Of a stretch of 64,000 bases of DNA, positions 5,160 to 52,158 are shown one piece after another. Every line of letters begins with the position of its first letter. The first letter of the stretch is position 1. Under the pieces are notes generated by a model, which saw only the letters and a list, made by a program, of their open reading frames with translations, had not been told where the DNA came from and ran no database searches. The DNA is from Saprospiraceae bacterium (GTDB lineage Bacteria; Bacteroidota; Bacteroidia; Chitinophagales; Saprospiraceae): assembly GCA_965277415.1 (NCBI GenBank), contig CBDICS010000033.1, forward strand, positions 628 through 64,627, in the 5' to 3' direction. Both the position numbers and the translations under genes were made by a program.

Positions 5160-5900
5160 ATGAAATGGCTCAAAAGAATTGGATTGATTATTTTAATTTT
5201 AATTGCCTTCATCGCAGTTTTATTTTTTGTTTATAATGAATCCAAACCGCAAGGACAAAAGGGCCCAGAAGCAGATGCATTAGCAAAACAAATGCTTGAT
5301 GCTATTGACAAAACTGGATGGGATACTACCGCTTATATTCAGTGGACATTCAAAGGAATGCATAGTTTTTTGTGGGATAAAAATCGACATTTCGTAAAAG
5401 TAACCTGGGAAGCGCATGAAGTGCTTTTAGATACTAAAAAAGTTGATGGCTTAGCATTTTTAAATGGAATAAAACAAACTGGTGAAGATGCTGATAAAAT
5501 GATTCAAGATGCTTGGACTTATTTCTGCAATGACTCCTTTTGGTTAAATGCACCATCAAAAGCTTTTGATATTGGAACAGAACGGAGTATTGTTGATTTA
5601 GGCAACAGCAAGAAGGGTTTAATGGTAAGTTATACTTCTGGAGGAGTAACGCCAGGAGATTCATACTTATGGATTCTAAATGAGCAAAACCTACCGATTA
5701 GCTGGAAAATGTGGGTCAGTATTATACCTCTTGGCGGAATGGAATTTAGTTGGGACAAATGGACAAGCTTATCAACAGGAGCTAAAATTTCGACTTTTCA
5801 TACAAGTAGCCTCTTAGATTTAGATATTTCAAATTTAAAAGGTGCAAGCAATCTAGCTGGAATGGGACTTGATAAAGATCCTTTTGAGGCTTTAAAATAA
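5160..5900 (+). CDS. hypothetical membrane-anchored protein
   Basis: 246 aa with one N-terminal TM helix (IGLIILILIAFIAVLFFVY). Trp-rich globular remainder. No family recognised. Confidence 0.55.
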   Translation: MKWLKRIGLIILILIAFIAVLFFVYNESKPQGQKGPEADALAKQMLDAIDKTGWDTTAYIQWTFKGMHSFLWDKNRHFVKVTWEAHEVLLDTKKVDGLAFLNGIKQTGEDADKMIQDAWTYFCNDSFWLNAPSKAFDIGTERSIVDLGNSKKGLMVSYTSGGVTPGDSYLWILNEQNLPISWKMWVSIIPLGGMEFSWDKWTSLSTGAKISTFHTSSLLDLDISNLKGASNLAGMGLDKDPFEALK

Positions 5901-21275: not shown

Positions 21276-22187
21276 CTATTTTTTACTAGCATTAAACAAA
21301 AACTCCTTCTCTTCTTCAGAAAGGCTTTCGTATCCATTTTGCTTAATTTTATCAAGAATAATGTCGAGTTCTTCCTGATGGGAAGATCTAACTTCTTTTT
21401 TTGGCTTATGTTTCTTTGCTTGAGCAGCTTTTGGATTTTTATACGCAACTCTAGGACCTTGTCTTTTAGCTGAACCTAGATTATTAAATAGAGATGACAG
21501 CTTATCCATAAAATTATTGATTGGTACGGCCCAATCTCTTCCATTCCTAAGTTGTGTGGCAAACATCCATCCAAAGAATGCGCCTCCAAGATGTGCTGCA
21601 TGACCACCGGTATTATCCATTCCTCCTACACCAATTAAATCCAATAGAAGCATTATACCAACCAAGTATTTCAGCTTTACAGCTCCAATAAGCGGAAGAT
21701 GTAAAAGATAATCTGGAGCTATAACACCTGCTGCGAGGATCACTGCCATGACCGCTGCTGAAGCACCAAAGGCATAGCTAGGACTAGAAATCATAAGATT
21801 GGCGAAAAGAAAATAAATAAAAGCACCAAATAATCCGCCCATTAAGTACAGTGGTAAAATCCGCCGATCACCAATCAAATCACCTACAATCTTTCCAAAC
21901 CAGTATAACAACAACAGGTTCCATAGGATATGCATAAAGCTAACATGTAAAAACATATTCGTGACAAGCACCCAGAGGTGGGTCAAGTTAAACATCCAAT
22001 CCTTATTGATAGAAAGGTATTTAAGGATATTATCTGTTGCAAGTCCCGTTATATCTCGGCCTGCACCTGAAAACACTAATACGAGGTTGATTATTATAAA
22101 CACAGCAATATTGATCAATATGATACGAGTTATCATATTCCCTGTATTAAACTGCAATTTTAAATCGTCCCAAATAGATGCAAACAT
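21276..22187 (-). CDS. rhomboid-family intramembrane serine protease
   Basis: 303 aa. GASAAV (Ser) and HLGGAFFG (His) motifs. Charged C-terminal extension. Confidence 0.85.
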   Translation of the reverse strand: MFASIWDDLKLQFNTGNMITRIILINIAVFIIINLVLVFSGAGRDITGLATDNILKYLSINKDWMFNLTHLWVLVTNMFLHVSFMHILWNLLLLYWFGKIVGDLIGDRRILPLYLMGGLFGAFIYFLFANLMISSPSYAFGASAAVMAVILAAGVIAPDYLLHLPLIGAVKLKYLVGIMLLLDLIGVGGMDNTGGHAAHLGGAFFGWMFATQLRNGRDWAVPINNFMDKLSSLFNNLGSAKRQGPRVAYKNPKAAQAKKHKPKKEVRSSHQEELDIILDKIKQNGYESLSEEEKEFLFNASKK

Positions 22188-22327
22188 GTTTTAAATCAAA
22201 ATTAGATTGTTGTTAATATATATATTCTATTTCCTACAAATATACTTGAATTGCCTAGCAAATGTTTTAGCCTTTATAGATTTTATTTTTAAAGATAAAA
22301 AACAGCGCTTCCAGTTTTACTAGATTT

Positions 22328-23014
22328 TTAAAACCTGGATCCAAACTTTTGCCAATACATAATCATAAGAAAACCGAATACAGCTCCTCCTACGTGTGCA
22401 AAGTGAGCAATACTTTGTCCAAATATTTGAAACCCAGTGAATCCGCCTAATAAATCAAGTGCTAATAAACCTGGAATAAAATACTTGGCTGCAATAGGCA
22501 CTGGAAAAAAGATTAAAGCCAATTTTGCATTTGGGAAATTCATTCCGTAGCCAACAAGAACTCCGTATAATGCTCCAGAAGCTCCGACGACGGGAATATG
22601 TGCCAAATATCCAGGGCCTCCTAAAAAATTCATTTCAATATAAATAGAAAGAAGATGAATTAATAATGCTCCCAACCCCGTAATTAAATAAAATAATAAA
22701 AACCTTTTTGTCCCCCAAAGGCTTTCAAGAGGTGGCCCAAACATAAATAATCCAAACATATTAAAGAACAAATGCATTACCCCTCCATGCATAAACATAT
22801 GAGAGATAATTTGAAACGGCTTGAAATATTCAGATGTGGGATAAAACATAGCAAGGATATCTCTCTGCCATTCAAAGAATCGTTCACCATCTGGCCTATT
22901 TACAAGGTCTTGGAAAACATACCCTGGAATTTCGCCAAGCATCGCGGTACTTGCGATATAGACGATTACATTTATAATGATCAGGTGCTTAACAACGTCA
23001 GTAATTCTTAACAT
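22328..23014 (-). CDS. rhomboid-family intramembrane serine protease
   Basis: 228 aa with GASGALYG and HVGGAVFG motifs. Confidence 0.85.
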   Translation of the reverse strand: MLRITDVVKHLIIINVIVYIASTAMLGEIPGYVFQDLVNRPDGERFFEWQRDILAMFYPTSEYFKPFQIISHMFMHGGVMHLFFNMFGLFMFGPPLESLWGTKRFLLFYLITGLGALLIHLLSIYIEMNFLGGPGYLAHIPVVGASGALYGVLVGYGMNFPNAKLALIFFPVPIAAKYFIPGLLALDLLGGFTGFQIFGQSIAHFAHVGGAVFGFLMIMYWQKFGSRF

Positions 23015-34132: not shown

Positions 34133-36046
34133 CTAAGCTTTCTTTTTGACCAATACTGCTTTCATTCCATCAGTCTTTGCTATTTCCTTATAAAAATTTC
34201 GAAGTTCTTCATATTTATCTGCGGCTACCTCAACAGCATATATTTCTAACAGTCGATTATAAACGATAATATTTTCCTTAACCTCAATACTAATTTGATA
34301 TTTTCCGAACGCTGACTCAAGCATTACTTGATCAGAAGGAATACTTTCTATTTCATAATCACCAGGAATAACATAAGTAAACGTATCTTCCTCTCTATAC
34401 TGTTTTTTTACATGTACAGGATGTATTCTTTTTTCAATTGCTTTGGGTATATTTTCGAATTGATTAAGCTTATTTAAGGGCATAAAGATACGTTTCCCTG
34501 CGGTTGATGCATACCTCGCTACAGAGATATGAAAATCCACTACTGTGAGTGGTTTCTTTTCATCATTAGAAATCTCCAATTTATCAATTGTAAAAGCAGA
34601 TAGGTTCGTATCTTCTAAAAATTCTTTTTCAATGTCCTCTTTAGAATAGTTATTTGAGAGGTATCTATAGTCATCATGTTTAGGTCCAATATACTTTGTT
34701 TGCTTTTTAATAATAGCTGCTCCTTTATTATTCAGTTCAAAAGTAGCTGTAGTCGCTTTTTTATTCTGATCTAATGGAAATGCTGGTGTGTTTATTATTT
34801 TACCTCCTTCCTCTGTGAGTAGTAAACTTTGTCGGCCTTCATTTCCCGAACCGATATAATTGGGTGGATAATCATTGCTCGTACATTCCAACCATATATC
34901 TTCTGACGGAATATTAATAATAACATGGTTAAAGCCAGGGTTTGCAAAATCCTCATCTATTTCTATTTTAGTATTACGGCTACTATAAATCAATGATTGA
35001 TATGATTTTATGCCTGCTACATTAAGCATAGATTTCATATAATTAGAAAGTGCTTTACAATCACCATATTTGTTTTTTTCTACATATTTAGCATCAAAAG
35101 TTTGCCATCCTCCAATTCCTAATTGTACGCTTACATAGCGCATATTATCTTGTAAATATTTGTAAAGGATAGCTATTTTTTCTTGATCATTTTTCGCATT
35201 AACAATAAGGTTTTTAACTTTTTTGGCCATCTCTGGACTCAATTCATCTCGCCCTTTATTAAGATCATACATAAACTGCCCAAAAGATGCCCAAGTAGAC
35301 ATATCTCCAGAATAATTATCATACTCAAATTTAGTCGGTGCAATTTTAATGGCTGGCCGGATCTTATGTTGATAGGGAGCATATGGTTCTGATTTCAATG
35401 CAGGTAATGAACTTGCCAGCCAAGAATAAACTACTTTTTTTCCCTCTTCTTCAATACTTGGTTCTAAATCTATATTTTCAGATTTATATCTTAATTTCAA
35501 GTCCTTAGGTATCTCTACTACAAACTTAAAATGCTCGACAGCCCTTGCATAGCTTTGTAAATAACTCGATGGGTAATAGAGTAAGCCTTTGAAGTTTTGA
35601 GTGTATTCTATTTCTACTGTATACGGATAACTATTATGATATAAGTTAATATATTTGACCCGATCATCCTCATAAATTGAAAAATCCGAGATAGCACTTT
35701 GATCAATAAATTCTTTACCTCTCACCTTTCTCACCTCTTTACCAAAAGCATCATAAACTTTTGCTGAAAGATTTGTAACTTTTGTAAGTTTATCATAACT
35801 GACATATTGAGTATGAGCGCGACTTTTATCATTGAGCAATGTGACGACATACTTTACTTTTAGGGTCGCAAGTTTAGGGCTTTCAATCTTGAAGTTCATA
35901 TAATCTAATCTCACAACTTCGTTTGCATTCTCCGTCAATTCATTAGGTAGATTAAAGACACTGTATTGACCAATTTGTGCACTGATCGTATTGTTTATAT
36001 TCAAAAGTGCTAGAACTATAAAAATATATTTGAATGACATTTTCAT
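34133..36046 (-). CDS. DUF3857/transglutaminase-like secreted protein (catalytic Cys present)
   Basis: 637 aa. Signal with ISA|QI. Transglutaminase core YGDCKAL ... FNHVI. Confidence 0.75.
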   Translation of the reverse strand: MKMSFKYIFIVLALLNINNTISAQIGQYSVFNLPNELTENANEVVRLDYMNFKIESPKLATLKVKYVVTLLNDKSRAHTQYVSYDKLTKVTNLSAKVYDAFGKEVRKVRGKEFIDQSAISDFSIYEDDRVKYINLYHNSYPYTVEIEYTQNFKGLLYYPSSYLQSYARAVEHFKFVVEIPKDLKLRYKSENIDLEPSIEEEGKKVVYSWLASSLPALKSEPYAPYQHKIRPAIKIAPTKFEYDNYSGDMSTWASFGQFMYDLNKGRDELSPEMAKKVKNLIVNAKNDQEKIAILYKYLQDNMRYVSVQLGIGGWQTFDAKYVEKNKYGDCKALSNYMKSMLNVAGIKSYQSLIYSSRNTKIEIDEDFANPGFNHVIINIPSEDIWLECTSNDYPPNYIGSGNEGRQSLLLTEEGGKIINTPAFPLDQNKKATTATFELNNKGAAIIKKQTKYIGPKHDDYRYLSNNYSKEDIEKEFLEDTNLSAFTIDKLEISNDEKKPLTVVDFHISVARYASTAGKRIFMPLNKLNQFENIPKAIEKRIHPVHVKKQYREEDTFTYVIPGDYEIESIPSDQVMLESAFGKYQISIEVKENIIVYNRLLEIYAVEVAADKYEELRNFYKEIAKTDGMKAVLVKKKA

Positions 36047-36091
36047 CTTTTTTGTTGCTTAAAAATAATTTCTTCTAGATTTTCAATCAAA

Positions 36092-38092
36092 TCAACTCTT
36101 CTTTTTAAGTACAATCTGCTCTCCATGTTTTTCAACAATAATATCAAAGAAGTTCTTAATTATGCCATACTCTTCAGGTTCATAATGTAGTTTTTTTATA
36201 CTTACTTTACTAATTACCTGGATGGTTTGCCCATTGTGACTAACTAGGTATTGAAATGCTCCTCCTTTCCCATCCATTTTCAAATTAATTGCTTCAGGCA
36301 AGGCTTCAATTACATAATCATTGGGTATGGTTAAATTTAGAATAAATTGGTTTTTCGATTTTAAAGCAATATCAACAGGGAAAGTTCTTTCCTCTTGCTT
36401 AAGTGGATTTTCATCATAACCTAAGCCTAGCATTGGAGATAAATAAATAAATTCTCCATTGGCTTGTGCTGCTTCAGGGATTTCTATATCTAAATTGCAC
36501 TTTAGAGGTTTTGATACCATTTGTTCGTTTTCAAAGTTAATGGATTTGATATTTATATCTGGAAATGCCTCTTGCCATTCTTCTCGAATATCTTTATGAT
36601 CCTCTCCTTTGAATTTATGAAAATTGGTTCTGCCATCCATAGCACAGTAGCCTTTAAGGCTTTTGTTTATTGTTCCAAAAACATTTCCATTTTCTTCAAG
36701 TGTCAAATTGGCCATTGCTACTTCTGTATCGCTTCCTCCGGGAATCTCTATCCATTGTGATTTTTCTCCATCTACTAGCCAGCCTCTATAATTAAGAGAA
36801 TTCATTCGCAATAGCTTAGGATCTCTTGTTGGGCTACCAACATCGAATAAACTTTCCTTTTCACCAAATTTAGCATAAGCAATAACATGATTAAACTGAT
36901 CTAATTTAGGATAATATTCCATTGTTCGTCCATGATTTCTAGTGCTTATTAGTATCGGATAAGCTTCTATATTGAAACGTCTACAAACTGCTATGAACAT
37001 CAAATTTAATTCTCCGCTAGATGCTGATTTTGTTCTAAATGCTTCATCCAAGGAAGGAGAAGTAATTCCATATTCTTTATTCCACTGTATGTTTTGAGAG
37101 AGATAGGAATAGATTGTTGATATTTTTTCTTCATCACTTTCATCATCTGCCAGCAATGGATCTATCGCAGCTACCAAATCTCTGGTAAATCTTTTCTTAT
37201 TTAATTGGACACCAAATTTGAGATTTTGCTCTAAATCCTTCGCTACTTTCTCCCAATTACCCGTAACATTTTCTCCAACACTGTTTGGGAATTTCACAAA
37301 TTGTAATTGTAAAGAAAGTTTTGAATAATAATCTCGCATGGTTGTAATAAATGGTTCCCTCTTTAATGCTGGTGCATTTTCTACTATATACCTTGTCACT
37401 TCAACATTTACACTTAAGCTTCCTGCAGATGATGATGTGTCAAAAGAGTTTCTAAGACGGGAAGTAGACATCGTACGAGATGTCTCAGATCTTTCTATTT
37501 TAGGAGATAAACCCTGATCAAATGAGACATAATGAAACCACTCTGGTATTTCGGTTCGGAATTCACTTAGTCTTGTTGGGATATCTGATTGAAAATACCA
37601 ATCCTCTAAATAATAAATCATCCCAGATCTTTTTGAGTATTTATATTCAATTATACAGCCCTCTTCAAGACTTGGAAAAGCAATTTTTTTGCTCGACCAA
37701 TATTCATCAACCTTTTCATCAAAAATATCTTTTTTATTGACACTTATCTTTTCACCATTAGGTAAGATCACTTGAGCCTTAAGCCCTGACAGTTTTTCTG
37801 ATTTCTTATATGAATAATACGGAATCTCAACGTCTCCTCTCTCATAAGCAGATTTTTTAAGAATCTTTATTCGAACATGATGATCTAAAGTATATTCAAT
37901 TCCACTTTCAGTAAAATCAAAATAGAGTCTCGCATAATCTGCTAGTACGACTGCCTCAGCTTCCTGATCTAGTTCATAAGTTTTCATTTTTAGATCAGCT
38001 TGACTTACCTTCCCCCATTTAATTGGGGCTTTTTGAGCAAATAGACTAAAGTAAAATAATATACAAAAGTAAAAAGCGGTTGAAGTTTTCAT
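36092..38092 (-). CDS. DUF3857/transglutaminase-like secreted paralogue (catalytic Cys apparently replaced)
   Basis: 666 aa. Signal with LFA|QK. By my by-eye alignment the equivalent core reads SSGELNLM ... FNHVI, with Leu where the Cys is expected. Confidence 0.7.
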   Translation of the reverse strand: MKTSTAFYFCILFYFSLFAQKAPIKWGKVSQADLKMKTYELDQEAEAVVLADYARLYFDFTESGIEYTLDHHVRIKILKKSAYERGDVEIPYYSYKKSEKLSGLKAQVILPNGEKISVNKKDIFDEKVDEYWSSKKIAFPSLEEGCIIEYKYSKRSGMIYYLEDWYFQSDIPTRLSEFRTEIPEWFHYVSFDQGLSPKIERSETSRTMSTSRLRNSFDTSSSAGSLSVNVEVTRYIVENAPALKREPFITTMRDYYSKLSLQLQFVKFPNSVGENVTGNWEKVAKDLEQNLKFGVQLNKKRFTRDLVAAIDPLLADDESDEEKISTIYSYLSQNIQWNKEYGITSPSLDEAFRTKSASSGELNLMFIAVCRRFNIEAYPILISTRNHGRTMEYYPKLDQFNHVIAYAKFGEKESLFDVGSPTRDPKLLRMNSLNYRGWLVDGEKSQWIEIPGGSDTEVAMANLTLEENGNVFGTINKSLKGYCAMDGRTNFHKFKGEDHKDIREEWQEAFPDINIKSINFENEQMVSKPLKCNLDIEIPEAAQANGEFIYLSPMLGLGYDENPLKQEERTFPVDIALKSKNQFILNLTIPNDYVIEALPEAINLKMDGKGGAFQYLVSHNGQTIQVISKVSIKKLHYEPEEYGIIKNFFDIIVEKHGEQIVLKKKS

Positions 38093-42628: not shown

Positions 42629-43252
42629 GGGCTTAACTACGCTGCCTTTTTCATAACTTTTTCAATAATCATATCCAATAATTTATCAAAAGGAATAATC
42701 TCAATAGAAAAATGCGCTCCCATTCGCATCGGATGACTTCTAAGTAAACCTATATATTTATGAGCTACTCGCTCTAGTGCTGTTGGATTAAAGTTAATTC
42801 TAGAATGCGGTAAATAACAGAGTATTTTTAGAAACCACTTGGCTCGTTTTGTGCTGAAGTCTTCTAAAAATATTTAGCTAATATCTATTTAATACGGAAA
42901 AACACTCTATTTAACAACAAGAACAAGGCTGCTTCTAGTTGGGCTGGTGCAATTATTACTGTTTTAATATTGCTTACTATAATATTCGATCTTTTATACT
43001 GGATAGTCCGTTTGCTTTATGGTGGGTAATTGCTTAAAACAACTGCTCACTATTGAACAACACAGATAAAAAACAGAAGCATAATTCTTTTATACCTACA
43101 TTTTAACATTCTAAACTATATAACAATCAACACTGCAAATAAAAATTAGTGAAAAGAATTTTATAGATATAATGTTGTTAATCAAAAAGTTATGACACAT
43201 GAGTCCAGTAGGCAAAGACATAATCAAGCTCAAAAAAACAATACAAAAACAG

Positions 43253-43280
43253 GGTAAAAAACGGATAGATGTTTTTTACC
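43253..43280 (-). terminator. AT-rich hairpin about 75 nt downstream of the micro-ORF
   Basis: GGTAAAAAAC-ggatagat-GTTTTTTACC: 10-bp perfect stem. Confidence 0.3.
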
Positions 43281-43353
43281 TGAGAATATTTATGCATATC
43301 TTCGAGATGTATCAGTAGCTTTTAATGCTACATTCCGTTCTAAAACACAACAG

Positions 43354-43485
43354 TTAAAAAATGTCTGTATCACCGGTGATGATATAGTCTGTACTGACCG
43401 TTACTGTGTCAGTACCACCCTTGATACTGCATTGTTGCTTTTTATCAAGATTCGATGCTTTTGTCTGTACTTCATGGATTGTCAT
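43354..43485 (-). CDS. 43-aa micro-ORF with double-glycine-type leader motif (candidate secreted peptide precursor)
   Basis: Codon-by-codon own translation: MTIHEVQTKASNLDKKQQCSIKGG TDTVTVSTDYIITGDTDIF. It is the 3' part of track ORF 43354..43623. TACATTTG (a TAnnTTTG -7-type box, reverse complement of 43515..43522) lies 29 nt upstream. Confidence 0.35.
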   Translation of the reverse strand: MTIHEVQTKASNLDKKQQCSIKGGTDTVTVSTDYIITGDTDIF

Positions 43486-43501
43486 GATGTTATATTTTAA
43501 T

Positions 43502-43627
43502 GTGATTAATACTACAAATGTAGTGTATATATCATCTACTACAATCACAAAATAGATACAAATCACAGTACTCTTTGAGTAGAGTTTCGACAAAGCGATT
43601 AGAGACAAATCACTCAATATCAATCAC
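43502..43627. promoter_or_regulatory. divergent promoter region with repeated GTGATT/AATCAC hexamers
   Basis: AATCAC at 43543-48, 43561-66, 43608-13 and 43622-27. GTGATT at 43502-07. The 14-mers TAGATACAAATCAC (43553-66) and TAGAGACAAATCAC (43600-13) differ at 1 position. Confidence 0.3.
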
Positions 43628-43647
43628 TTGAGCAAACTAAGTTATAT

Positions 43648-45150
43648 ATGCGCATACTTTATGAATTAATAGACACTTTGCCAGATAATTTCATCCCTGA
43701 TTTACCTCCGAGACTAACCAAACTCTACCTGTTTGTAAAGAAGAACAAACAACTAAGCGAAAAACAGGCTGCCACTATATACTTAGAAGATAGCAATAAA
43801 ACAAAGTACTTTAATATTCTAAAAAGTGATCTTAAAAAAGCTTTGATTCTTCGTCTCATAGCTACGCCTTCAATATCTACCAACAAGGATAAAGCCTTAA
43901 TAGAAAACTGCTACCGCATTCATGCCAACTATAAGATATTTTTACTAAATAACAAACGAGAGACCGCTATAGAAATGGCCAGAAGCTTATTGCCAAAACT
44001 ACAGAAACTAGAACTCTATGTTCTACTCTATAGTGTAGCTGATGATCTACTCATTCATTATTCTGTGATAGATTTTTCTGTAAAGAGACAAAAAAAATAT
44101 GCTGCCCTTACAAAGCAAGCACTTGTAGACCTTAATGCATACGCTCAAGTTCGAGAGTATTATAGTGGACTTCTATCAATATGTAATGTTCGGGAGAGCT
44201 TTTCCCAAAATATTATAAAAAAATGCATTGAGACAGTTGGTATAGTAGAACCACTCTTGCAAGTCGGGCGGCATAACACAAATCGTTTTATTTATATTAT
44301 TATCATCTGTCGATATACAGTTGTACACGACTACGAAAACATCATCAAGTATTGTGATAAGGCTTTGAATAGTTTCCCAAAAAACCACCCACATATACGA
44401 TCATTGTCCTTCATGTTTCTATTTAATAAAACTTCTGCCCTCGTACCACTTGGTAAACTAGCAGAAGCAAAACAAGTCGCCAGAGATACACTTCGCATAG
44501 TTCCAACAGGGAGTTTCAATTGGCATTTGATTCTTCTTAAGCGAATCGTAGTATGCCTTCATGCAGGAGACTTTCAAGAAGCCTATCAGCTATATAAAGC
44601 ACATGTGAAAAAGAAATGCCCTTACCCTCTCATCACAGAATATTGGAATATAATAAAAGGATATCTATACTTTCTCATTCAAGTAGGACTGATAGAACCT
44701 TATTCTAAAGAACGTTTTTACCTAGGCAAATTTCTAAATGAAATGCCAATTTACTCTAAGGATAAAGCAGGCAACAATATTAACATTTTAATTATCCAAA
44801 TACTGGTGCAAATGCGGCGTGGACAATTTGTAAAGATTATCGACCGCATTGACTCACTCAGAGAATACGCTCGGTTATACACCAGAAATGAAGAGACTAA
44901 ACGAGCGAATATTTTCATAAAGATGATTATAAAAATGGAAGCAGCACGGTTTCATAGAAAAGGTACTGAAACCAAAACCAAAACATTATTACAAAAACTA
45001 AAAACAACACCTCTTCATATGAGACAAAACCTTGCTATAGAGGTTATTCCGTATGTTGTTTTGTGGGAAGAAGTTCTCTTAATACTTGACAACAAATTTA
45101 GAACGACCGTAGTGAGACAAGTACAAACAAATACACCAAAGAAAAAATAG
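43648..45150 (+). CDS. orphan all-helical TPR-like repeat protein
   Basis: 500 aa with no TM helix or signal peptide. TPR-like stretches include GKLAEAKQVARDTLRI and GDFQEAYQLYKAH. No catalytic motif recognised. Confidence 0.7.
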   Translation: MRILYELIDTLPDNFIPDLPPRLTKLYLFVKKNKQLSEKQAATIYLEDSNKTKYFNILKSDLKKALILRLIATPSISTNKDKALIENCYRIHANYKIFLLNNKRETAIEMARSLLPKLQKLELYVLLYSVADDLLIHYSVIDFSVKRQKKYAALTKQALVDLNAYAQVREYYSGLLSICNVRESFSQNIIKKCIETVGIVEPLLQVGRHNTNRFIYIIIICRYTVVHDYENIIKYCDKALNSFPKNHPHIRSLSFMFLFNKTSALVPLGKLAEAKQVARDTLRIVPTGSFNWHLILLKRIVVCLHAGDFQEAYQLYKAHVKKKCPYPLITEYWNIIKGYLYFLIQVGLIEPYSKERFYLGKFLNEMPIYSKDKAGNNINILIIQILVQMRRGQFVKIIDRIDSLREYARLYTRNEETKRANIFIKMIIKMEAARFHRKGTETKTKTLLQKLKTTPLHMRQNLAIEVIPYVVLWEEVLLILDNKFRTTVVRQVQTNTPKKK

Positions 45151-45192
45151 TTATCACTAGTAAACAATAACAAGAGAGGGGTTTTTAAAGGT

Positions 45193-45240
45193 GCAGCCTG
45201 CTACAGCGAGAAGGGCGTACGACTTCTCGTGGCGGGTTGC
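45193..45240 (+). terminator. long GC-rich hairpin 43 nt after the 500-aa gene stop
   Basis: GCAGCCTGC..CGAGAAG-ggcgtacga-CTTCTCG..GCGGGTTGC. The inner 7-bp stem is perfect and the outer 9 bp pair with G-U wobbles. About 65% GC in an AT-rich context. No strong T-run. Confidence 0.4.
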
Positions 45241-45649
45241 TAATATTAGTAAAATTTAAATATTTATAAAACATGTTAAAACAAAAGGCGATGAAACTTT
45301 TGTGCTGCATAAAGCATTATAAAAGGTAGGAATATGTGTTTCTCTAATTCACATATTTATTTTCATTTCTAACTGCCCTCGCAAGTACTTTATAACAGCC
45401 GAAAACAGAGAGAGATTATTTTTTGCCCTATGCAAAAGCATGGGGGTGGATGTATTTTTTCACCTATACAATATACTGCAATGACTTCACGACCATGCAT
45501 TGCAGCAGGGTTTGTTATGCCCTTGCTGTTCTATCAATATCTATGAACGATCTATTCTTACTAAAAACTGCTTCCTGGTAATTAGCCAGCGATTGGAGTA
45601 ATCTCTAATTCGTATCAACAATATTTTAAGAAAACTTAAACCGAATATT

Positions 45650-48600
45650 ATGTATCAACACCATATAAAATCTATTAAGACGAGCTATATGCTTTTCTTT
45701 CTATTTCTCTTCTTTTTTCCTTGTCTTTCATATGCGAATAACACTTCATCTACTCCCCCTCTATATCAAGCAGGGAAAATATATCTAAAAATAAAAGATA
45801 ATTCCTCTGTTGAATTAGGACTTCCGAATAGTAATTCAAATCCAGCTAAAATAGAAACCTTATTCCTTCAATATGGCGTCACAAAAATAATTAAGCCATT
45901 TAAAGTATATGCAAAACCAAAGTTTGATAGAATTTACCGAATCACTTTTGATGAACAAAATCTGGTAGAAGATTTCATTCGTGGTTTGGAAAATATTGCC
46001 TATATCCAGTATGCCGAAAAAGTACCTCATTATGTTGCTCATGAACTTGTTCCAGATGATCCTTCTGCCCAAAATGGAGAATCGTACCAGTTGGAACTGA
46101 TCAATGCTTATGATGCTTTTGAATTATATCCAGGTGATCCAACAGATAATTCTGCAGGTTCGCTGATTGCGATAGTCGATAATGCAGTCTTGGTAACGCA
46201 TGAAGACTTGGCAGAAAACTATATTATCGGAAGAGATGTAGCAGATAATGATGATGATCCTAATCCACCAACCAATCATGGTCTTTTTGGTCATGGTACA
46301 AGAGTCGCAGGAATTGCTTGTGCGAGAACCAACAATGGAATAGGAGTTGCTTCTATCGGGTGGAACAATCAATTAATGGCCATAAAGAGCGCTGCAGACA
46401 TTGGCTCAAACAATGGGGAAAGCTATTATGATGAAGCTATTGATGGAGTCGCTTGGGCTGCAGCTAATGGTGCGGAAGTTATTAATATGTCTTGGGGTGG
46501 AGGTGCTCCTTCAGAATCTGATTATAATGTTTTGGTCGAAGCCAGAGATTTAGGAAGTATTCTGGTATCCAGTGCTGGAAATACCAGCAATTCTCTTCCC
46601 AATTTTCCAGGCTCTTACGGAGAGGGCGAAACAGGAGAGGTTTGGGAGATTTTTGACAAACATTTAGTAATAGCTGTTGCTGCAATAGACCCTAATGGCG
46701 ATCGATCTTGGTTCTCTTCTTTTGGATCATGGGTAGATGTAGCAGCGTATGGATCAAATATTTATACCTGTTCCAGCCAAGATAATGTTAGTTATATTGA
46801 TAATCGTATCGGTACTTCTTATGCCGCTCCACTTGTTTCCGGACTCTTAGGCATGATGAAGTCCTATGCCCCGAATGCCACTAACGAAGATCTGATTAAT
46901 TGCTTACTCTACTCTGCCAATTCTGATATTTATAATCCACTAGAGCACCCTGACAATATTTCTGGTTCTTTGGGAAGCGGTAGAATAGATGCTTTGGCAG
47001 CACTATTATGTATTAATCCAAACTGCGATGATCCGCTTGCAGTCATATTCCCTTCCTCTCCAACCATTTGCCCAAACGAGGATATTACCTTATCTTCAAA
47101 TGATGGTATCGGGTATATGTGGTCTACAGGAGAGGCTACACAATCGATCAATATTTCACAGTCTGGAAATTATTCTGTTACTGTTACATTTAATGGAGGT
47201 TGTACTGCTTCAACATCGATTGATATTGATCCAGCATTATCTTCTCCTTTTATTATTATGACAGATTTGTCCGGAAATATAATTGACGAAAACCCTATCT
47301 GTGTCCCAGAAAATGGATTTTCTTATCACCTTTCCGCTTTTTGGGGAAATAGTTATTTATGGAATAATGGCAGTACTATATCGACGTATAATCCCCCAAA
47401 TGGATTTAGTGTCGTAACCAATGCTTTAGCCCCATTTCTATTGGACCGTTCGGTGAATATTTCTGGCGTTGGGGGATGTGACGGCGTGGATGAGGTAGTT
47501 TCTATACAGTATGAGTTTATACCTACCCCAGAAATAGCCTTTACATTTGAAGAAACTTCAGGTTTCGAAAATGATGGCTGGGTCTGTGAAAACGAGAATG
47601 CAAGTGTAATCATTAATGCCGTAACCGAAGAAGCCTATAACCCGACGTATATGTGGAGTACTGGAGAAACCACAAGTTTTATTGCTGTCACACCTTCCGC
47701 CACTACATCGTATTTTGTAACCATCACTAACGAATTTGGGTGTATTAATGAAAAAGAGGTTGAGGTCGAAGTCTTTCCATGTCCTGATAATGCTTGTGCT
47801 TGTACTAGTGGAAATAATGCCTATGATTTTGGAATTGATGATGGGGCAGTACACAATATGTCTGAGTTATCCGGAATTCCTCCCATAGGAATTATAACGA
47901 GTAATTGTATTAGCATCCGTGGAAAGATCCGATTTGATTTAAATCTCAATTTTTTTGAAAATTCAGTTATCTACCTCAATCCCGGAGCAGAGTTAATTGT
48001 TCCAGATGGCGAAGTACTTTCATTTGTAGACTGCACATTGATGGGCTGTGATGCCATGTGGAAGGGAATTACTGTTGAAACAGGAGGGCGATTAAATTTC
48101 AGGAATAATATAATCAGAGATGCACAATATGCCATTACAGCTCATGGGGAATCTACCTTACAAATTTTAGGCAGCACTTTCGACAGAAACTTTGTTGGTA
48201 TATACGTCCCGCCGCCAACGGCAGGTTCTCCTAATATTTTTGTTAATACGATCAATCAAGCAGATTTTGGAAGTGCAACAGCGAATTTTTCTGGTAATCA
48301 ATATCTATGTACTGGTAATCTTAAAGCGCCGTACGCTGGTCAGTTTCCTGAGCCTGGGAATATAACCTATTCAGGGCTATTACTTGCTTATGTCAATTAC
48401 TTTCAAGTCGGTTTTCCGGTTATAGGAGGTTATCGAAAAGCAACTTTTGACGGCCTTAGAAATGGAATCATTGCTTATAATACAGTCTTGGATATAGGTG
48501 GAGATATGCGAAACTTAGTTGGTGAAAATATCGGAGGCAATCCGTTTTTCCCAATTGGAGGAGGCGACTTTTCCCATTCAGGGATTGGCGTTTTTTCAGT

Positions 48601-50629
48601 CAATTCGAGTGGTCTAAGTCTATCTAATAGTATTATTGAAAATGCATATAGAGGTATTTATGCTAGGCATGTTGATATAAATGATATTAGTCAAAATACT
48701 TTTACCAATGTAAATACCGGAATAGAGGTTATTAAAAATGAAGGGAATACGATACATATTGGAGGGGAAGGCAATGATAGGAATGATATCTATTGTAGAG
48801 AAGCAGGAATCCTTATCAATGAATCAAATCGTTGTGATATCAATATTACCAATAATTATATCTTTAGGGAAGCAGGTAGCACTAGCCCCATGCTTGGAAT
48901 CGGGGTTTACAATACTATCCTAGATTTGGAGAATAGTGGCAATGTAGATAATAATGGAGGGATTGCAGATATATTTAATAATCATATTGAGTTGACCAAT
49001 TTTGATTTGGTCACCATTGACAAAGGTATTGAAATCATGAACTCTGCTTTTGTCAAAGTCAAACAAAATAGTATCTGGGAAGTAGATGGCTCGGGAGCAA
49101 AACATTTTATCTCCCTACTCGGAAATTATGGACATACACAGATACGTAATAATGAAGGATTTTCTTTTTCTCCTTCTCCCTCTAATGCATTAGGGATGAA
49201 CATCGTGAATAATACCCATACGACTTATTGTTGTAATTCGTTTATTGGCATTGATCAGGGTGTTCGTTTTTCTGGCATGTCAGACGATACTCAATTTAGA
49301 GGAACGTGGTTTGGTAATATTAATACCAGAGGATTATTGCTAGAACAAGGAACAACAATAGGCGTACAGGGTAACCCAAACACAAGCGATTATCTTCCCG
49401 GAAATAAATGGTCTGCTAATGGTGGAGGGGCTGAGCATATGGGAACATTCGCTGAAATTGATCAATCATTAATCTATTATGATCAAAATATTAATGGTTC
49501 TTATCCTGTCCCAGATCCAATCCCTAATTCTGATTGGTTTGTCCCTGACCCAAATATAAATGATCCTCTTCCAACGATTGATTGTTTTGTCAATCTAGAT
49601 TGTGAAATTGATGAACTCAATATTATTGATGATGACCCTATAGATGAAGTAGATATTAAGATTGCTGACGGAACCCTCTCCTCAGGTCATTTTGGAGGAG
49701 GAGTACATTGGGAAGGGCAAAGACATTTATATAGAAAACTTGAGCAAAACAATCAACTACTTAGTCAAAATTCTATAATTCATAATTTTCATTCTATAAA
49801 TGAAACAACCTCCCTTGGTCAATTATACGAAATTGATAGAGAGGTTTCAACATTATATCACAGTAATAATTCTGTAGTACAATCTATAATGATTCAACGA
49901 CAAAGTGTCAGAACACTTCTTCATTTAATTCAAGAAAAAGATAGTTTAATTATGGTATCTCCAGAAGACACCCATACAGGAATAAAAGCAGAACAGGCGG
50001 TATTAATTAATGAATTAAGTGTACTAAATGAAGCACTTTACAATCTTTTAACTAGTTTTAATAGTGATAAACAAAGCATAGTAAATAACATTCTTAACCT
50101 AAATAATAGCATTAGTTCACAATCTATTTTTGAGCAAAACCGCTTATCTGTAAATGATATATATCTCAATACTATAGCTGGCGACATTTTCGAACTCAAT
50201 ACTACACAATTTCAATCGCTGAAAATGATTGCTGAACAATGTCCACTGAGTGGTGGGAACGCTGTCTTTCAAGCACGAGGAATATTAAAAGCAATAGGCG
50301 ATAACACCTATTATGATAATGAACTAATATGTACTCCAGCTCAACAGAAATCAGAAGTATATACTGAAAAAGAAATGATTGCTGAACAATTAGAGGTTTA
50401 CCCTAACCCTACCAAAGATATCATAACAATAGCCTTTGATGGCTCGCTTAAGTCTGATTTAGAATTTAAATTATATGATGTGTCAGGTAAACAAATACAA
50501 GTATTTACGCTAGCTAAAGGACAAAAAGAGTATACCTTAAATTTAGCAAATACGACTAAAGGGCTGTATTTTTATGAATGTAAAATGAACCGTCAAGTTT
50601 ATAAAGGAAAAATTGTACTAATGAAATGA
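45650..50629 (+). CDS. T9SS-secreted multidomain S8 (subtilisin-family) protease with Ig-like repeats, parallel beta-helix region, helical region and type-A C-terminal sorting domain
   Basis: 1659 aa with signal peptide. Triad contexts IAIVDNAV, GHGTRVAG and GTSYAAPLVSG. Three Y(M/L)W..G.T repeats. Beta-helix-like repeats. CTD YPNPTKDIITIAF...GLYFYECK...GKIVLMK. Confidence 0.9.
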   Translation: MYQHHIKSIKTSYMLFFLFLFFFPCLSYANNTSSTPPLYQAGKIYLKIKDNSSVELGLPNSNSNPAKIETLFLQYGVTKIIKPFKVYAKPKFDRIYRITFDEQNLVEDFIRGLENIAYIQYAEKVPHYVAHELVPDDPSAQNGESYQLELINAYDAFELYPGDPTDNSAGSLIAIVDNAVLVTHEDLAENYIIGRDVADNDDDPNPPTNHGLFGHGTRVAGIACARTNNGIGVASIGWNNQLMAIKSAADIGSNNGESYYDEAIDGVAWAAANGAEVINMSWGGGAPSESDYNVLVEARDLGSILVSSAGNTSNSLPNFPGSYGEGETGEVWEIFDKHLVIAVAAIDPNGDRSWFSSFGSWVDVAAYGSNIYTCSSQDNVSYIDNRIGTSYAAPLVSGLLGMMKSYAPNATNEDLINCLLYSANSDIYNPLEHPDNISGSLGSGRIDALAALLCINPNCDDPLAVIFPSSPTICPNEDITLSSNDGIGYMWSTGEATQSINISQSGNYSVTVTFNGGCTASTSIDIDPALSSPFIIMTDLSGNIIDENPICVPENGFSYHLSAFWGNSYLWNNGSTISTYNPPNGFSVVTNALAPFLLDRSVNISGVGGCDGVDEVVSIQYEFIPTPEIAFTFEETSGFENDGWVCENENASVIINAVTEEAYNPTYMWSTGETTSFIAVTPSATTSYFVTITNEFGCINEKEVEVEVFPCPDNACACTSGNNAYDFGIDDGAVHNMSELSGIPPIGIITSNCISIRGKIRFDLNLNFFENSVIYLNPGAELIVPDGEVLSFVDCTLMGCDAMWKGITVETGGRLNFRNNIIRDAQYAITAHGESTLQILGSTFDRNFVGIYVPPPTAGSPNIFVNTINQADFGSATANFSGNQYLCTGNLKAPYAGQFPEPGNITYSGLLLAYVNYFQVGFPVIGGYRKATFDGLRNGIIAYNTVLDIGGDMRNLVGENIGGNPFFPIGGGDFSHSGIGVFSVNSSGLSLSNSIIENAYRGIYARHVDINDISQNTFTNVNTGIEVIKNEGNTIHIGGEGNDRNDIYCREAGILINESNRCDINITNNYIFREAGSTSPMLGIGVYNTILDLENSGNVDNNGGIADIFNNHIELTNFDLVTIDKGIEIMNSAFVKVKQNSIWEVDGSGAKHFISLLGNYGHTQIRNNEGFSFSPSPSNALGMNIVNNTHTTYCCNSFIGIDQGVRFSGMSDDTQFRGTWFGNINTRGLLLEQGTTIGVQGNPNTSDYLPGNKWSANGGGAEHMGTFAEIDQSLIYYDQNINGSYPVPDPIPNSDWFVPDPNINDPLPTIDCFVNLDCEIDELNIIDDDPIDEVDIKIADGTLSSGHFGGGVHWEGQRHLYRKLEQNNQLLSQNSIIHNFHSINETTSLGQLYEIDREVSTLYHSNNSVVQSIMIQRQSVRTLLHLIQEKDSLIMVSPEDTHTGIKAEQAVLINELSVLNEALYNLLTSFNSDKQSIVNNILNLNNSISSQSIFEQNRLSVNDIYLNTIAGDIFELNTTQFQSLKMIAEQCPLSGGNAVFQARGILKAIGDNTYYDNELICTPAQQKSEVYTEKEMIAEQLEVYPNPTKDIITIAFDGSLKSDLEFKLYDVSGKQIQVFTLAKGQKEYTLNLANTTKGLYFYECKMNRQVYKGKIVLMK

Positions 50630-52158
50630 TACTTCTTTTAAAAAGAAATACATTTATATTACTCGTGTTGTTGTGTATTGGAACTTCCAATGCACAACGG
50701 CACGATAATGTTTGGTTGTTTGGATACAGTAGTAGTCCTGATTCTACTTTTGGTGGCAGCGTATTGGAATTCAATGAAGATACAATCAATAGTTATTATC
50801 AGGATAGAGATATGAATTTTAGCCAAACAAATACCAGTATGAGTGATACTTCCGGTAATTTACTATTTTATACTAATGGAATATACATTGCTAATACCGA
50901 ACATGATACCATGCAAAATGGTGACGGAATCAATCCAGGAGAATATGCAGATGACCATGCTTATTATGGTTATATATTAAGTCAAGGAACTTTAGCTATT
51001 CCAAAGCCAGAAAGCGAAAACCTCTATTATTTATTCCATACTTCTTTAGACTACCCCAATAACCAAATTAGTTTTCATAGCCCTTTATTCTATTACTCTC
51101 TAATAGATATGAGTCTAGATAATGGTTTAGGCGCAGTCATTCAAAAAAACCAAATCATCATTGATGATATTTTAACGCTAGGAAGAGTCACTGCCACCAA
51201 ACATGCTAACGGACGAGACTGGTGGATATTGCTTAGAAAATATGCTGCCAACAAATATTACAGAATTTTGGTAACGCCTGACGGAGTTGTTAATCACGGT
51301 ATACAAGAAATTGGAGTTCCTTTTAGCGACGGAGTTGGGCAAGCTGTTTTTTCTCCTAATGGTAGAAAATATGTAGTGTATAATGGCAATTTCATTGATG
51401 AAGGCGGACTGCTTAACATTTACGACTTTGACAGATGTTCCGGAGACTTAAGCAATCCTATACAAACCTCAATGGTGGATTCAGCTTATTCTCTAGGAGC
51501 TGCTGTCTCTCCCAATTCCAGATACTTATATCTTTCTTCTTATAATTATATCTATCAATACGATCTAGAAGCTGATGATGTCCTCGCATCCAAAGACACG
51601 GTCGCAATTTATGATGGGTATGAAGTTGAAATAACGCCAACGATTGGTGCTCCTACACGGTTCAAATATATGCAATTAGCTCCTGATGGCAAGATTTATA
51701 TCAATATTCCTGGTGCAGTGAATGTTCTACATGTTATCAATCAGCCCAATGAAGCAGGAGATGCTTGTGAGGTAGCACAGCATAGTATCCCCCTACCGAC
51801 TTTCAATGCGCACTCTTTGCCTCATTTTCCAAACTACCGACTTGGGGCAGATACAGAGAGTCTTTGTGATACCATTACTTCAGTTGAAGCCCCTACTACT
51901 ACACACAAGCATAATAGCATTAAGATATTTCCGAATCCTACAAATGAAGTCCTCAATTTAGACTTTGATCAAATAATAGATTCAGACTTTGTTTTTGAAA
52001 TTTACGATGTGTCTGGAAAATTGATGACTAGTTTTGAGCTAGCCCAAGGACTAAGACAATACTCCATCCGCCTATCAGATTTACAGGAAGGGATTTATTT
52101 TTATGCGTGTAAGCTCGGTAATCAATCCTTTAATGGAAAAATTGTATTGATGAAATGA
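50626..52158 (+). CDS. T9SS-secreted beta-propeller-like protein with type-A C-terminal sorting domain
   Basis: 510 aa. Its ATG overlaps the upstream TGA (ATGA at 50626-50629). Signal with SNA|QR. Motifs LLFYTNG, HANGRDWWIL and LAPDGKIYI. CTD FPNPTNEVLNLDF...GIYFYACK...GKIVLMK. Confidence 0.85.
   Translation: MILLLKRNTFILLVLLCIGTSNAQRHDNVWLFGYSSSPDSTFGGSVLEFNEDTINSYYQDRDMNFSQTNTSMSDTSGNLLFYTNGIYIANTEHDTMQNGDGINPGEYADDHAYYGYILSQGTLAIPKPESENLYYLFHTSLDYPNNQISFHSPLFYYSLIDMSLDNGLGAVIQKNQIIIDDILTLGRVTATKHANGRDWWILLRKYAANKYYRILVTPDGVVNHGIQEIGVPFSDGVGQAVFSPNGRKYVVYNGNFIDEGGLLNIYDFDRCSGDLSNPIQTSMVDSAYSLGAAVSPNSRYLYLSSYNYIYQYDLEADDVLASKDTVAIYDGYEVEITPTIGAPTRFKYMQLAPDGKIYINIPGAVNVLHVINQPNEAGDACEVAQHSIPLPTFNAHSLPHFPNYRLGADTESLCDTITSVEAPTTTHKHNSIKIFPNPTNEVLNLDFDQIIDSDFVFEIYDVSGKLMTSFELAQGLRQYSIRLSDLQEGIYFYACKLGNQSFNGKIVLMK

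Follow-up and report, generated by a model that had tools for sequence, protein, structure and literature searches.

The 64,000-nt stretch of Saprospiraceae DNA analysed here as a whole (contig CBDICS010000033.1; hereafter the window) carries on its minus strand, at 43354..43485, an open reading frame (ORF) of 43 codons plus stop (MTIHEVQTKASNLDKKQQCSIKGGTDTVTVSTDYIITGDTDIF) that is unannotated and unnamed in the databases searched. The question raised by this micro-ORF is whether it is a gene at all and, if it is, with what partner its product acts. A sequence-only reading of the same DNA had described a genuine micro-gene with a double-glycine (GG)-type leader, which our comparison upholds, and had likened the product to class II bacteriocins or modified natural-product precursors, a reading that we do not favour, since the Thr/Asp stretch is the most variable part of the peptide and the tail the conserved one. 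The significant feature is this conserved C-terminal tail together with an obligate tetratricopeptide repeat (TPR) partner, and not the Thr/Asp-rich "core". The partner is the product of a divergently transcribed 500-aa gene (43648..45150, plus strand), which had also been picked out earlier, its role as obligate partner going unrecognised.

That the gene is real, that it is paired with the 500-aa gene in a fixed geometry, that its leader is of the GG type, that its tail is conserved across export types, that the partner has a cytoplasmic TPR-type architecture, that several paralogous pairs occur per genome and that secreted proteins of the type IX system are frequent neighbours are observed or computed results. 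In the interpretation that we favour, and to which we give an even chance, the micro-ORF and the divergent gene would form a two-gene peptide-ligand/receptor cassette, similar to the RRNPP systems, in Saprospiraceae-type Bacteroidota.

Conservation of the micro-ORF

Related loci, cited below by L-numbers, were gathered from species-representative genomes (21 loci), by exact-protein look-up (11) and from metagenomes (9), and were divided into those with a close homologue of the 500-aa gene (at least 44% identity) and those with a distant one (24-33% identity). The sequence-only reading had tied its case to the frame being kept beside homologues of the 500-aa gene, and kept it is: a related divergent micro-ORF is present in 25 of the 25 other close-homologue loci with enough upstream DNA, intact in 24 of them and truncated in L001, where it ends after the leader (...RTIK) owing to a rearrangement. 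Two tandem copies are found in L005, L011, L014 and L037. The start codons of peptide and partner are 147-174 nt apart in all 18 close loci measured and 165-171 nt apart in the distant loci L021, L031 and L032; in the window, the divergent intergenic region between the two ATG codons (43486..43647) spans 162 nt, in keeping with a spacing that is fixed across loci. A family hidden Markov model (HMM) built from 19 peptides was run against the six frames of the window and 24 related loci, and gave its members E <= 4e-9 with the next best non-member at 0.065. The truncated L001 copy scored 2.4e-7, and exactly one copy was detected in the window.

The copies of the window and L022, equal in length and without indels, differ by pN 0.24 and pS 0.66 according to the Nei-Gojobori method (dN/dS ~0.18). 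Values of ~0.1-0.2 were obtained between the tandem copies in L011 and L014, the overall range being about 0.1-0.4, and the leader gave 0.05-0.5. More than 40 distinct sequences, down to 24% identity of the partner, share the frame, the length, the GG site and the C-terminal motif. A protein-database search with the peptide, limited in its reach by a 5-residue word index, recovered 20 proteins. A short, unannotated and unnamed frame might be suspected of having opened by chance in AT-rich intergenic DNA; this is refuted by the comparative data, as the number of conserved sequences, a dN/dS well below 1 and a promoter box at a conserved position (see below) leave it next to no probability. On the evidence of sequence comparison, the micro-ORF is a real coding gene under purifying selection, and one that looks expressed.

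In L001 (1090-1345, minus strand), which is the closest relative in the genome collection, the truncated micro-ORF is followed by a 57-aa HTH_23-type ORF beginning with MEKQKSKTRQQIADELGMSISTFRRWLKR. A small helix-turn-helix (HTH) ORF 63% identical to it lies upstream of a distant partner homologue in L026 (L026:3657-3827, minus strand), and an intact form of the L001 peptide is present in another assembly (P0094). In a separate case, two copies from the same metagenome-assembled genome (MAG), PL25a_bin.71 (L006:5715-5843 and L007:5719-5847), differ in their last 9 codons by 5 non-synonymous and 1 synonymous change; the numbers are very small, and these tail changes may reflect a divergence of signal specificity, with the rest of the peptide under purifying selection.

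Start codon, candidate promoter box and terminator-like hairpin of the peptide gene

Read from 43485 to 43354 (minus strand), the peptide consists of a 24-aa leader, MTIHEVQTKASNLDKKQQCSIKGG, ending in IKGG, and a 19-aa core, TDTVTVSTDYIITGDTDIF. This translation had been given exactly in the sequence-only reading, as had the composition of the core (six Thr, one Ser, four Asp, no Cys and no basic residue). It was likewise right that the ORF list holds only a longer form of 89 aa with a TTG start (43354..43623). In the relatives, stop codons are located 1-5 codons 5' of the conserved ATG, from which it follows that the ATG at 43485 is the start and that the 89-aa version is not the gene.

The -7-type box TACATTTG reported earlier is present at 43522..43515 (minus strand), its last base 29 nt before the ATG, and is a candidate Bacteroidota-type promoter element of the peptide gene. 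Its position is shared with the relatives: 13 of 18 loci have a TAnnTTT box, mostly TACCTTTA, that begins 28-41 nt before the ATG of the peptide gene. On the 3' side, the AT-rich hairpin at 43280..43253 (minus strand) was recovered 74 nt past the stop codon, with a perfect 10-bp stem, a loop of 8 nt and a T-rich tail; it has a folding z-score of -3.6, and none of 200 shuffled sequences folds equally well. Together with the T-tract (43243..43280, minus strand) it resembles an intrinsic terminator, and no counterpart is conserved in the other loci examined.

Leader, spacer and tail of the peptide family

Positional consensus counts were taken from 29 distinct GG-type peptides of the family, including that of the window. 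Their leaders are 24-29 aa long, with 24 aa ending in ...SIKGG in the window (43414..43485, minus strand). Gly at -1 and -2 and Lys at -3 are found in 29/29, as is I/L/V at both -4 and -12; position -11 is Asp, Ser or Asn, and position -8 is Gln or Glu in 26/29, mostly Gln. Position -7 is hydrophobic in only ~10/29, which is relaxed compared to the class II bacteriocin-type pattern. Judged by these counts, the leader fits the classical double-glycine pattern with a relaxed -7. The window peptide gave no match at E <= 10 to the GG-leader HMMs (TIGR01847, ComC and EntF models) and none to TIGR04149. Among 19 relatives, 1-4 match the bacteriocin_sig (TIGR01847), ComC and EntF induction factor models weakly (E 0.017-0.037) and four match TIGR04149 weakly in the leader region only (best E 7e-4), and a minority of family members show a weak leader-only match to the lanthipeptide leader L1a.

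The cores that follow the GG site have 15-22 aa, a net charge of -3 to -6 and three basic residues across all 29. Cys occurs in 0/29, which excludes the thioether classes; being short, strongly anionic and free of Cys, these cores are atypical for bacteriocins. The first part of the core is a polar spacer of Thr, Ser, Asp and Asn between the GG site and the tail (TDTVTVSTD in the window; 43387..43413, minus strand). It is the least conserved segment of the peptide, varying in length and sequence, and its Thr/Ser positions show no conservation across the family peptides. The spacer is missing in L020 and L032, where the core has 9 aa after GG, and in L021 and L031, where the peptides are leaderless and 19 aa long. 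The idea of a Thr/Asp-rich core as the key feature was not borne out, since the stretch is dispensable in these four loci.

Only the last 9-10 residues are conserved family-wide, as I-I-I-(E/V/G)-D-(I/T/V)-D-x-h in a constant register to the stop codon. Asp is found at -5 in 28/29 and at -3 in 23/29, I/L/V/F at -9 in 29/29 and I/L/V at -8 in 27/29. In the window this C-terminal motif, which is the proposed mature ligand, reads YIITGDTDIF (43357..43386, minus strand; family consensus I-I-I-x-D-x-D-x-h). The fixed D-x-D register to the C-terminus fits the recognition of a free C-terminal tail.

One tail on different front ends

Most of the distant loci keep an upstream divergent micro-ORF that ends in the motif, and its front end differs. 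In L032 the leader MSFEIIKGLTIETITCEELKEIKGG (ending in ...EELKEIKGG) is followed by IIGDDVDVF, and in L020 ...EQKEVKGG is followed by IIEQDILVG, the core being in both cases the motif alone; the L032 start codon is 171 nt from that of the partner. L021 and L031 encode the leaderless peptides MGWFIGLLTIIITGDVEVL and MEWLLEMLGIIIIDDSEAQ, respectively, each at 165 nt from the partner gene. A signal-like hydrophobic N-terminus with a spacer is present in L019/L039, L027, L028 and L030, whose peptides end in ...IITDVDGF, ...VIIIDDNEIL, ...VVVDIDEL or ...VIVDTDAIAY. A regular expression for the tail alone, applied to ~400 kb in six frames, gave 27 matches, of which 25 lie within 1 kb upstream of a partner gene and divergent from it. 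No clear tail-motif peptide was found in L025, L026 and L029, which means that the pairing is not universal among distant homologues. The occurrence of the same tail on differing front ends suggests that the functional unit is the C-terminal tail and that the leader is an exchangeable export module.

L019 and L039 have in addition a 10-codon mini-ORF, MRIITDVDGF, in tandem with a 28-codon ORF of the same IITDVDGF ending (L019:5352-5384 and 5445-5531; L039:5349-5381 and 5442-5528; all minus strand). The tandem is retained in these two independent assemblies, and the N-terminal part of the longer ORF differs between them at three residues.

A conserved tail could also serve a peptide that is never secreted, which would bind the TPR protein within the cell as an anti-activator, a co-factor or a degradation tag, its N-termini being incidental or membrane-targeting. 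Pairing, fixed geometry and a conserved tail need binding only and not export, neither an exporter nor an importer is found nearby, and some versions of the peptide have 19 codons and no recognisable leader. However, three export-type N-termini on one tail (GG leader, signal-like, and short hydrophobic as in the short hydrophobic peptides, SHPs, of Rgg systems) are hard to account for if the peptide stays inside, selection acts on the GG leader consensus, with the dN/dS given above, and a peptidase-containing ABC transporter (PCAT) occupies the position of the peptide at L025. We regard such an intracellular small-protein modulator as quite unlikely.

Exporters and modifying enzymes

The sequence-only reading had found neither an exporter nor a modifying enzyme in the window, and Pfam scans of its 45 ORFs of at least 100 aa agree, with no C39/PCAT, radical SAM (rSAM), LanM/B/C or YcaO protein; ATP-grasp is absent from the same scans. 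No SPASM/rSAM, ATP-grasp, Lan or YcaO maturase recurs beside ~40 related loci. In an all-against-all BLASTP clustering of the ORFs of 21 loci and the window, the 500-aa protein was the sole conserved family, and no immunity gene, exporter or modifying enzyme is conserved next to the micro-ORF. At L025 (752-4076, minus strand; partner identity 30%), the divergent position is taken by an HlyD/AprE-type adaptor of 389 aa and a Peptidase_C39 ABC exporter of 723 aa. This exporter is accompanied by an 89-aa lipoprotein-like ORF, and none of the other loci has an exporter nearby.

These results bear on a different reading of the peptide, namely as precursor of a bacteriocin or of a ribosomally synthesised and post-translationally modified peptide (RiPP). 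It would either be modified in trans, for example with graspetide-type omega-esters, or remain an unmodified class II peptide, and the TPR protein would be a regulator, a scaffold or an immunity protein. The leader does match the canonical GG pattern, and the weak matches to TIGR04149, lanthipeptide leader L1a and bacteriocin_sig point in the same direction. Bacteroidetes graspetide loci typically have GG-motif precursors with Thr/Ser/Asp cores, and C39 peptidases are frequently encoded apart from RiPP loci (PMC8939145). Set against this are the window without ATP-grasp, rSAM, Lan or YcaO genes and the lack of any recurring one at the related loci, together with a Thr/Ser-rich part that is the least conserved and a dispensable one. 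The short cores without Cys and with a net charge of -3 to -6 also argue against a RiPP or bacteriocin, and the tail occurs on non-GG export modules as well, which leader-guided modification would not tolerate. A precursor of this type is in our judgement unlikely; if it were true, the cassette would represent a new precursor family whose maturation route is unknown. Processing by a PatA/PatG-like macrocyclase was considered and dropped, its sole support being a generic subtilase match (E 0.003).

The 500-aa partner protein

The protein proposed here as receptor or regulator is a predicted cytoplasmic, all-alpha protein in which no signal peptide was found. In a large protein database it has 83 homologues, the best at 69% identity and all of them unnamed, and a later search with a broader alignment yielded no further named or cultured-organism members. 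A profile search of 1.84 billion representatives returned 2309 clusters, of which 1078 at E <= 1e-30, nearly all with proteins of 480-530 aa. The named sources of homologues are Saprospiraceae, Chitinophagales and unclassified Bacteroidota MAGs. The partner has no match in NCBIfam; in Pfam, most of 33 members show weak sub-threshold TPR matches, and a SIX1_SD match was spurious.

AlphaFold2, supplied with 33 homologues, gave a confident all-helical model (pLDDT 86, pTM 0.81), in which the partner is predicted to have a TPR-like superhelix preceded by a small N-terminal domain that is HTH-like. Residues 1-82, modelled alone, form a 4-helix bundle (pLDDT 83); its structural matches are dominated by the HTH domains of sigma region 4, LuxR/FixJ/NarL, WhiA and RptR, all of them non-significant (best E 0.8). 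When the PDB was searched with Foldseek, AimR took ranks 1-3 and ten AimR chains were in the top 26, followed by NprR-NprX and phage Rap; the best AimR match had E 6.6e-3, with TM 0.39-0.54. Asn, Lys and Arg are prominent among the invariant and near-invariant residues of the family (N291, K361, N364, K373, N377 and R419).

Conservation within the family is highest at residues 355-385 (window 44710-44802; ERFxLGKFLNEVPIYSKDKAGNNINILIIQIL), many of which are invariant. This stretch is not TPR-repeat-like and largely overlaps the least confident part of the model, which is partly loop (pLDDT ~70). A SusD-like lipoprotein was considered for the partner and rejected, since the protein carries no lipoprotein signal, SusC is not among its neighbours and SusD is missing from its top structural matches.

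The cassette has undergone paralogous expansion. Three to five copies, each with a peptide of its own, are present in some single MAGs, and paralogous pairs with differing tails occur three times in PL25a_bin.71, three times in R3_Bin_216 and four times or more in IP29b_bin.23. The last of these MAGs has two more copies of the partner gene that are C-terminal fragments (residues ~262-499, L016:6001-6708; residues ~309-485, L018:6001-6531), have no micro-ORF upstream and are probably decayed cassettes.

The predicted fold lends itself to a further explanation, in which the TPR protein acts not as regulator but as chaperone or adaptor, holding the acidic, EEVD-like tail for export or processing, and the peptide acts outside the cell, for instance as inhibitor, pro-region mimic or cofactor of the adjacent proteases secreted by the type IX secretion system (T9SS). 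The TPR fold, the Asn/Lys/Arg invariants and the acidic C-terminal motif fit carboxylate-clamp binding, proteases are common as neighbours, and sequence searches detect no HTH. However, the downstream genes are not always proteases or T9SS cargo, the best structural matches of the N-terminal domain, non-significant as they are, are DNA-binding HTH domains, and a dedicated 500-aa chaperone for a 40-aa peptide, in several copies per genome, would be unusual. We therefore hold a chaperone or adaptor role to be very unlikely.

A proposed peptide-receptor cassette

In the ligand/receptor reading that we favour, the 43-aa pro-peptide would be made from its own short transcription unit and leave the cell, presumably through a C39-peptidase ABC exporter whose gene lies outside the window and which would cleave off the double-glycine leader. 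The polar spacer might then be trimmed outside the cell, possibly by secreted subtilases as for the Phr peptides of Bacillus, a step that is pure inference. The acidic-hydrophobic tail, ...YIITGDTDIF with a free carboxyl end, would be re-imported or otherwise reach the cytoplasm, where the partner would bind it on the concave side of its TPR superhelix. The HTH-like N-terminal domain would in turn change how the cassette is transcribed and probably also affect adjacent genes, which often encode T9SS-secreted proteases. What we infer in this model is the export and processing of the peptide, its re-entry and direct binding, and the DNA binding and regulon of the partner. In favour of the reading count the constant pairing, the exchangeable front ends on one tail, the register of this tail to the C-terminus, a partner without signal peptide whose best structural matches, weak as they are, are RRNPP receptors, the paralogous pairs, the exoprotein genes downstream and, at the one locus L025, the exporter in the divergent position.

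Candidate cargo is found 3' of the partner gene, in the same orientation. In the window this is an S8 subtilase of 1659 aa with a T9SS C-terminal sorting domain (CTD; 45650..50629, plus strand), which is associated with the cassette and not conserved, followed in the same operon, with a 4-nt overlap, by a T9SS-CTD protein of 510 aa (50626..52158, plus strand). These two are the only CTD proteins among the 45 window ORFs. T9SS neighbours are frequent in other loci as well: an S8 protease again in L022, an M4 thermolysin in L004, an M10 protease in L017, and CTD proteins of unknown type in L008, L016 and, weakly, L007; in L001 a CTD protein is followed by an RHS-repeat protein and in L003 by a lectin-like protein. 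The downstream genes are non-homologous between loci. The S8 protease was also considered as a dedicated partner and was dropped, as the neighbourhood clustering shows no conservation.

Several results weigh against the ligand/receptor reading. Foldseek gave no PDB match at E <= 1e-3, and structure does not place the partner among the RRNPP receptors; generic TPR proteins (APC subunits, LGN, KLC) score nearly as high as AimR, and a search of viral structures returned generic TPR proteins only. Profiles of Pfam and of PDB sequences, applied to the whole partner and to its N-terminal domain, reveal no HTH and no RRNPP relative. Neither a PCAT nor an oligopeptide importer nor a TonB-dependent transporter is encoded in the 64-kb window. 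In a diderm cell, the peptide would have to cross two membranes on its way out and again on its way back, for which we know of no precedent. T9SS-CTD genes follow the partner gene in 8 clear cases and 1 weak case among 13 loci scanned, that is, in only about two-thirds. The enrichment of tail matches upstream of the partner gene is partly circular at the distant loci, as the regular expression had been refined after the sequences were known. Finally, no word is common to the peptide-partner intergenic region and the partner-cargo spacer beyond chance, and in 21 intergenic regions the position-anchored information content is confined to the -7 box and to A-rich stretches ahead of the start codons. 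As neither a conserved operator nor a shared word emerged, sequence lends no support to DNA binding or to the regulon. The CAAATCAC repeats of the window intergenic region, tried as an operator, are neither enriched nor conserved.

To our knowledge, the sensing of peptide pheromones by cytoplasmic TPR receptors is considered characteristic of Bacillota and of their phages, and Gram-negative bacteria are thought to use small molecules instead. If the ligand/receptor reading is true, it would extend this cytoplasmic peptide-receptor logic to diderm bacteria, raise the question of how a peptide crosses two membranes out and back, and offer a testable handle on how T9SS protease secretion is coordinated in abundant marine and wastewater Bacteroidota, which are major degraders of proteins and polymers. 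The case also shows that "hypothetical" micro-ORFs can be assigned through their pairing and tail conservation and not through their leader type. A search of the literature on peptide signalling, GG peptides and TPR receptors in Bacteroidota and Saprospiraceae found nothing that describes the cassette.

In its most far-reaching form, the proposal would be that of the first cytoplasmic-receptor peptide quorum-sensing family in a diderm phylum, with Saprospiraceae/Chitinophagales-specific receptors in ~2300 clusters at 50% identity. The free acidic tail would be the signal, the export modules (GG leader, signal peptide or none) would be interchangeable, T9SS proteases and exoproteins would be switched on as public goods, and the whole would have arisen independently of RRNPP. 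We put this version at somewhat below an even chance.

Other features of the window

The remaining window ORFs are ordinary chromosomal genes, such as RecO, PBP1A, MutL, CysS, peptidases and others. The 725-nt stretch between the PBP1A gene and the micro-ORF (42629-43353) is without a convincing ORF, and the spacer between the partner gene and the S8 gene (45151-45649) measures 500 nt. Rfam gave nothing above threshold for these two stretches, the only match being a weak one to RT-6 at 45424-45461 (E 0.9), and a plasmid similarity search of the region gave nothing. Two tandem paralogous proteins of 637 and 666 aa that combine DUF3857 with a transglutaminase core are encoded at 34133-38092 (minus strand); a homologous combination, fused to TPRs, is the next gene after the partner gene in L013 (L013:7700-11455, plus strand). 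Two adjacent genes for rhomboid-family intramembrane proteases, of 303 and 228 aa, are found at 21276-23014 (minus strand).

Comparison with known systems

TPR domains bind C-terminal (I/M)EEVD tails, as in the association of Hop, CHIP and PP5 with Hsp70/Hsp90. The cassette resembles these carboxylate clamps in its hydrophobic-acidic motif, held in constant register to a free C-terminus, and in a TPR protein with Asn/Lys/Arg invariants. The clamps, however, are part of eukaryotic chaperone biology, with no homology shown, and the binding mode is proposed here by analogy only.

With ComC/ComAB, BlpC, EntF and the class II bacteriocins, the peptides of the family share the leader L(-12) D/S(-11) x x Q/E(-8) x x x I(-4) K G G. 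They differ in that no PCAT or two-component sensor is located nearby and the sensing partner would be a cytoplasmic TPR protein. Their short cores are anionic and non-amphipathic, and the window peptide falls below every curated HMM threshold. The GG-motif RiPP precursors of Bacteroidota (TIGR04149/TIGR04139/PF14406 and graspetide branch 5; PMC8939145) have in common with the family the phylum, an ...IKGG-type leader and a Thr/Ser/Asp-rich region after GG. A maturase always accompanies those precursors, whereas no ATP-grasp or SPASM/rSAM gene is found beside the ~40 loci studied here, the peptides have no Cys, and what is conserved is a C-terminal tail and not a cross-link pattern.

Functionally closest are the RRNPP systems (Rgg/SHP, PlcR/PapR, NprR/NprX and AimR/AimP), which have been described only in Firmicutes (PMC10075063, PMC9765709). 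Their receptors show no detectable sequence homology to that of the cassette, have 280-420 aa compared to ~500 aa here, and carry an XRE-type HTH where the one predicted here is, weakly, sigma-4/LuxR-like. The host here is a diderm member of the Bacteroidota, and the RRNPP pro-peptides are without the double-glycine leader that the clade of the window carries. The N-terminal HTH of RRNPP receptors is itself absent in Rap. The likenesses concern the arrangement as a whole: a small pro-peptide gene beside that of a cytoplasmic receptor (proposed here), a receptor made of a small N-terminal helical domain, of HTH type, and a TPR-like superhelix (predicted here), a pro-peptide whose C-terminal end would be the active part, tails that are short, hydrophobic and acidic as in SHP, and many paralogous pairs per genome. 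The best structural matches of the partner, all weak, are likewise AimR, NprR and Rap. Secreted proteases adjoin the cassette in the manner of NprR-nprA, RopB-speB and the PlcR regulon, which are established parallels for a receptor beside an exoprotease. If the ligand/receptor reading is right, for which the chances seem to us evenly balanced, the pair of genes belongs to a known kind, a peptide pheromone with its cytoplasmic TPR receptor, encountered here in a phylum where none is known.

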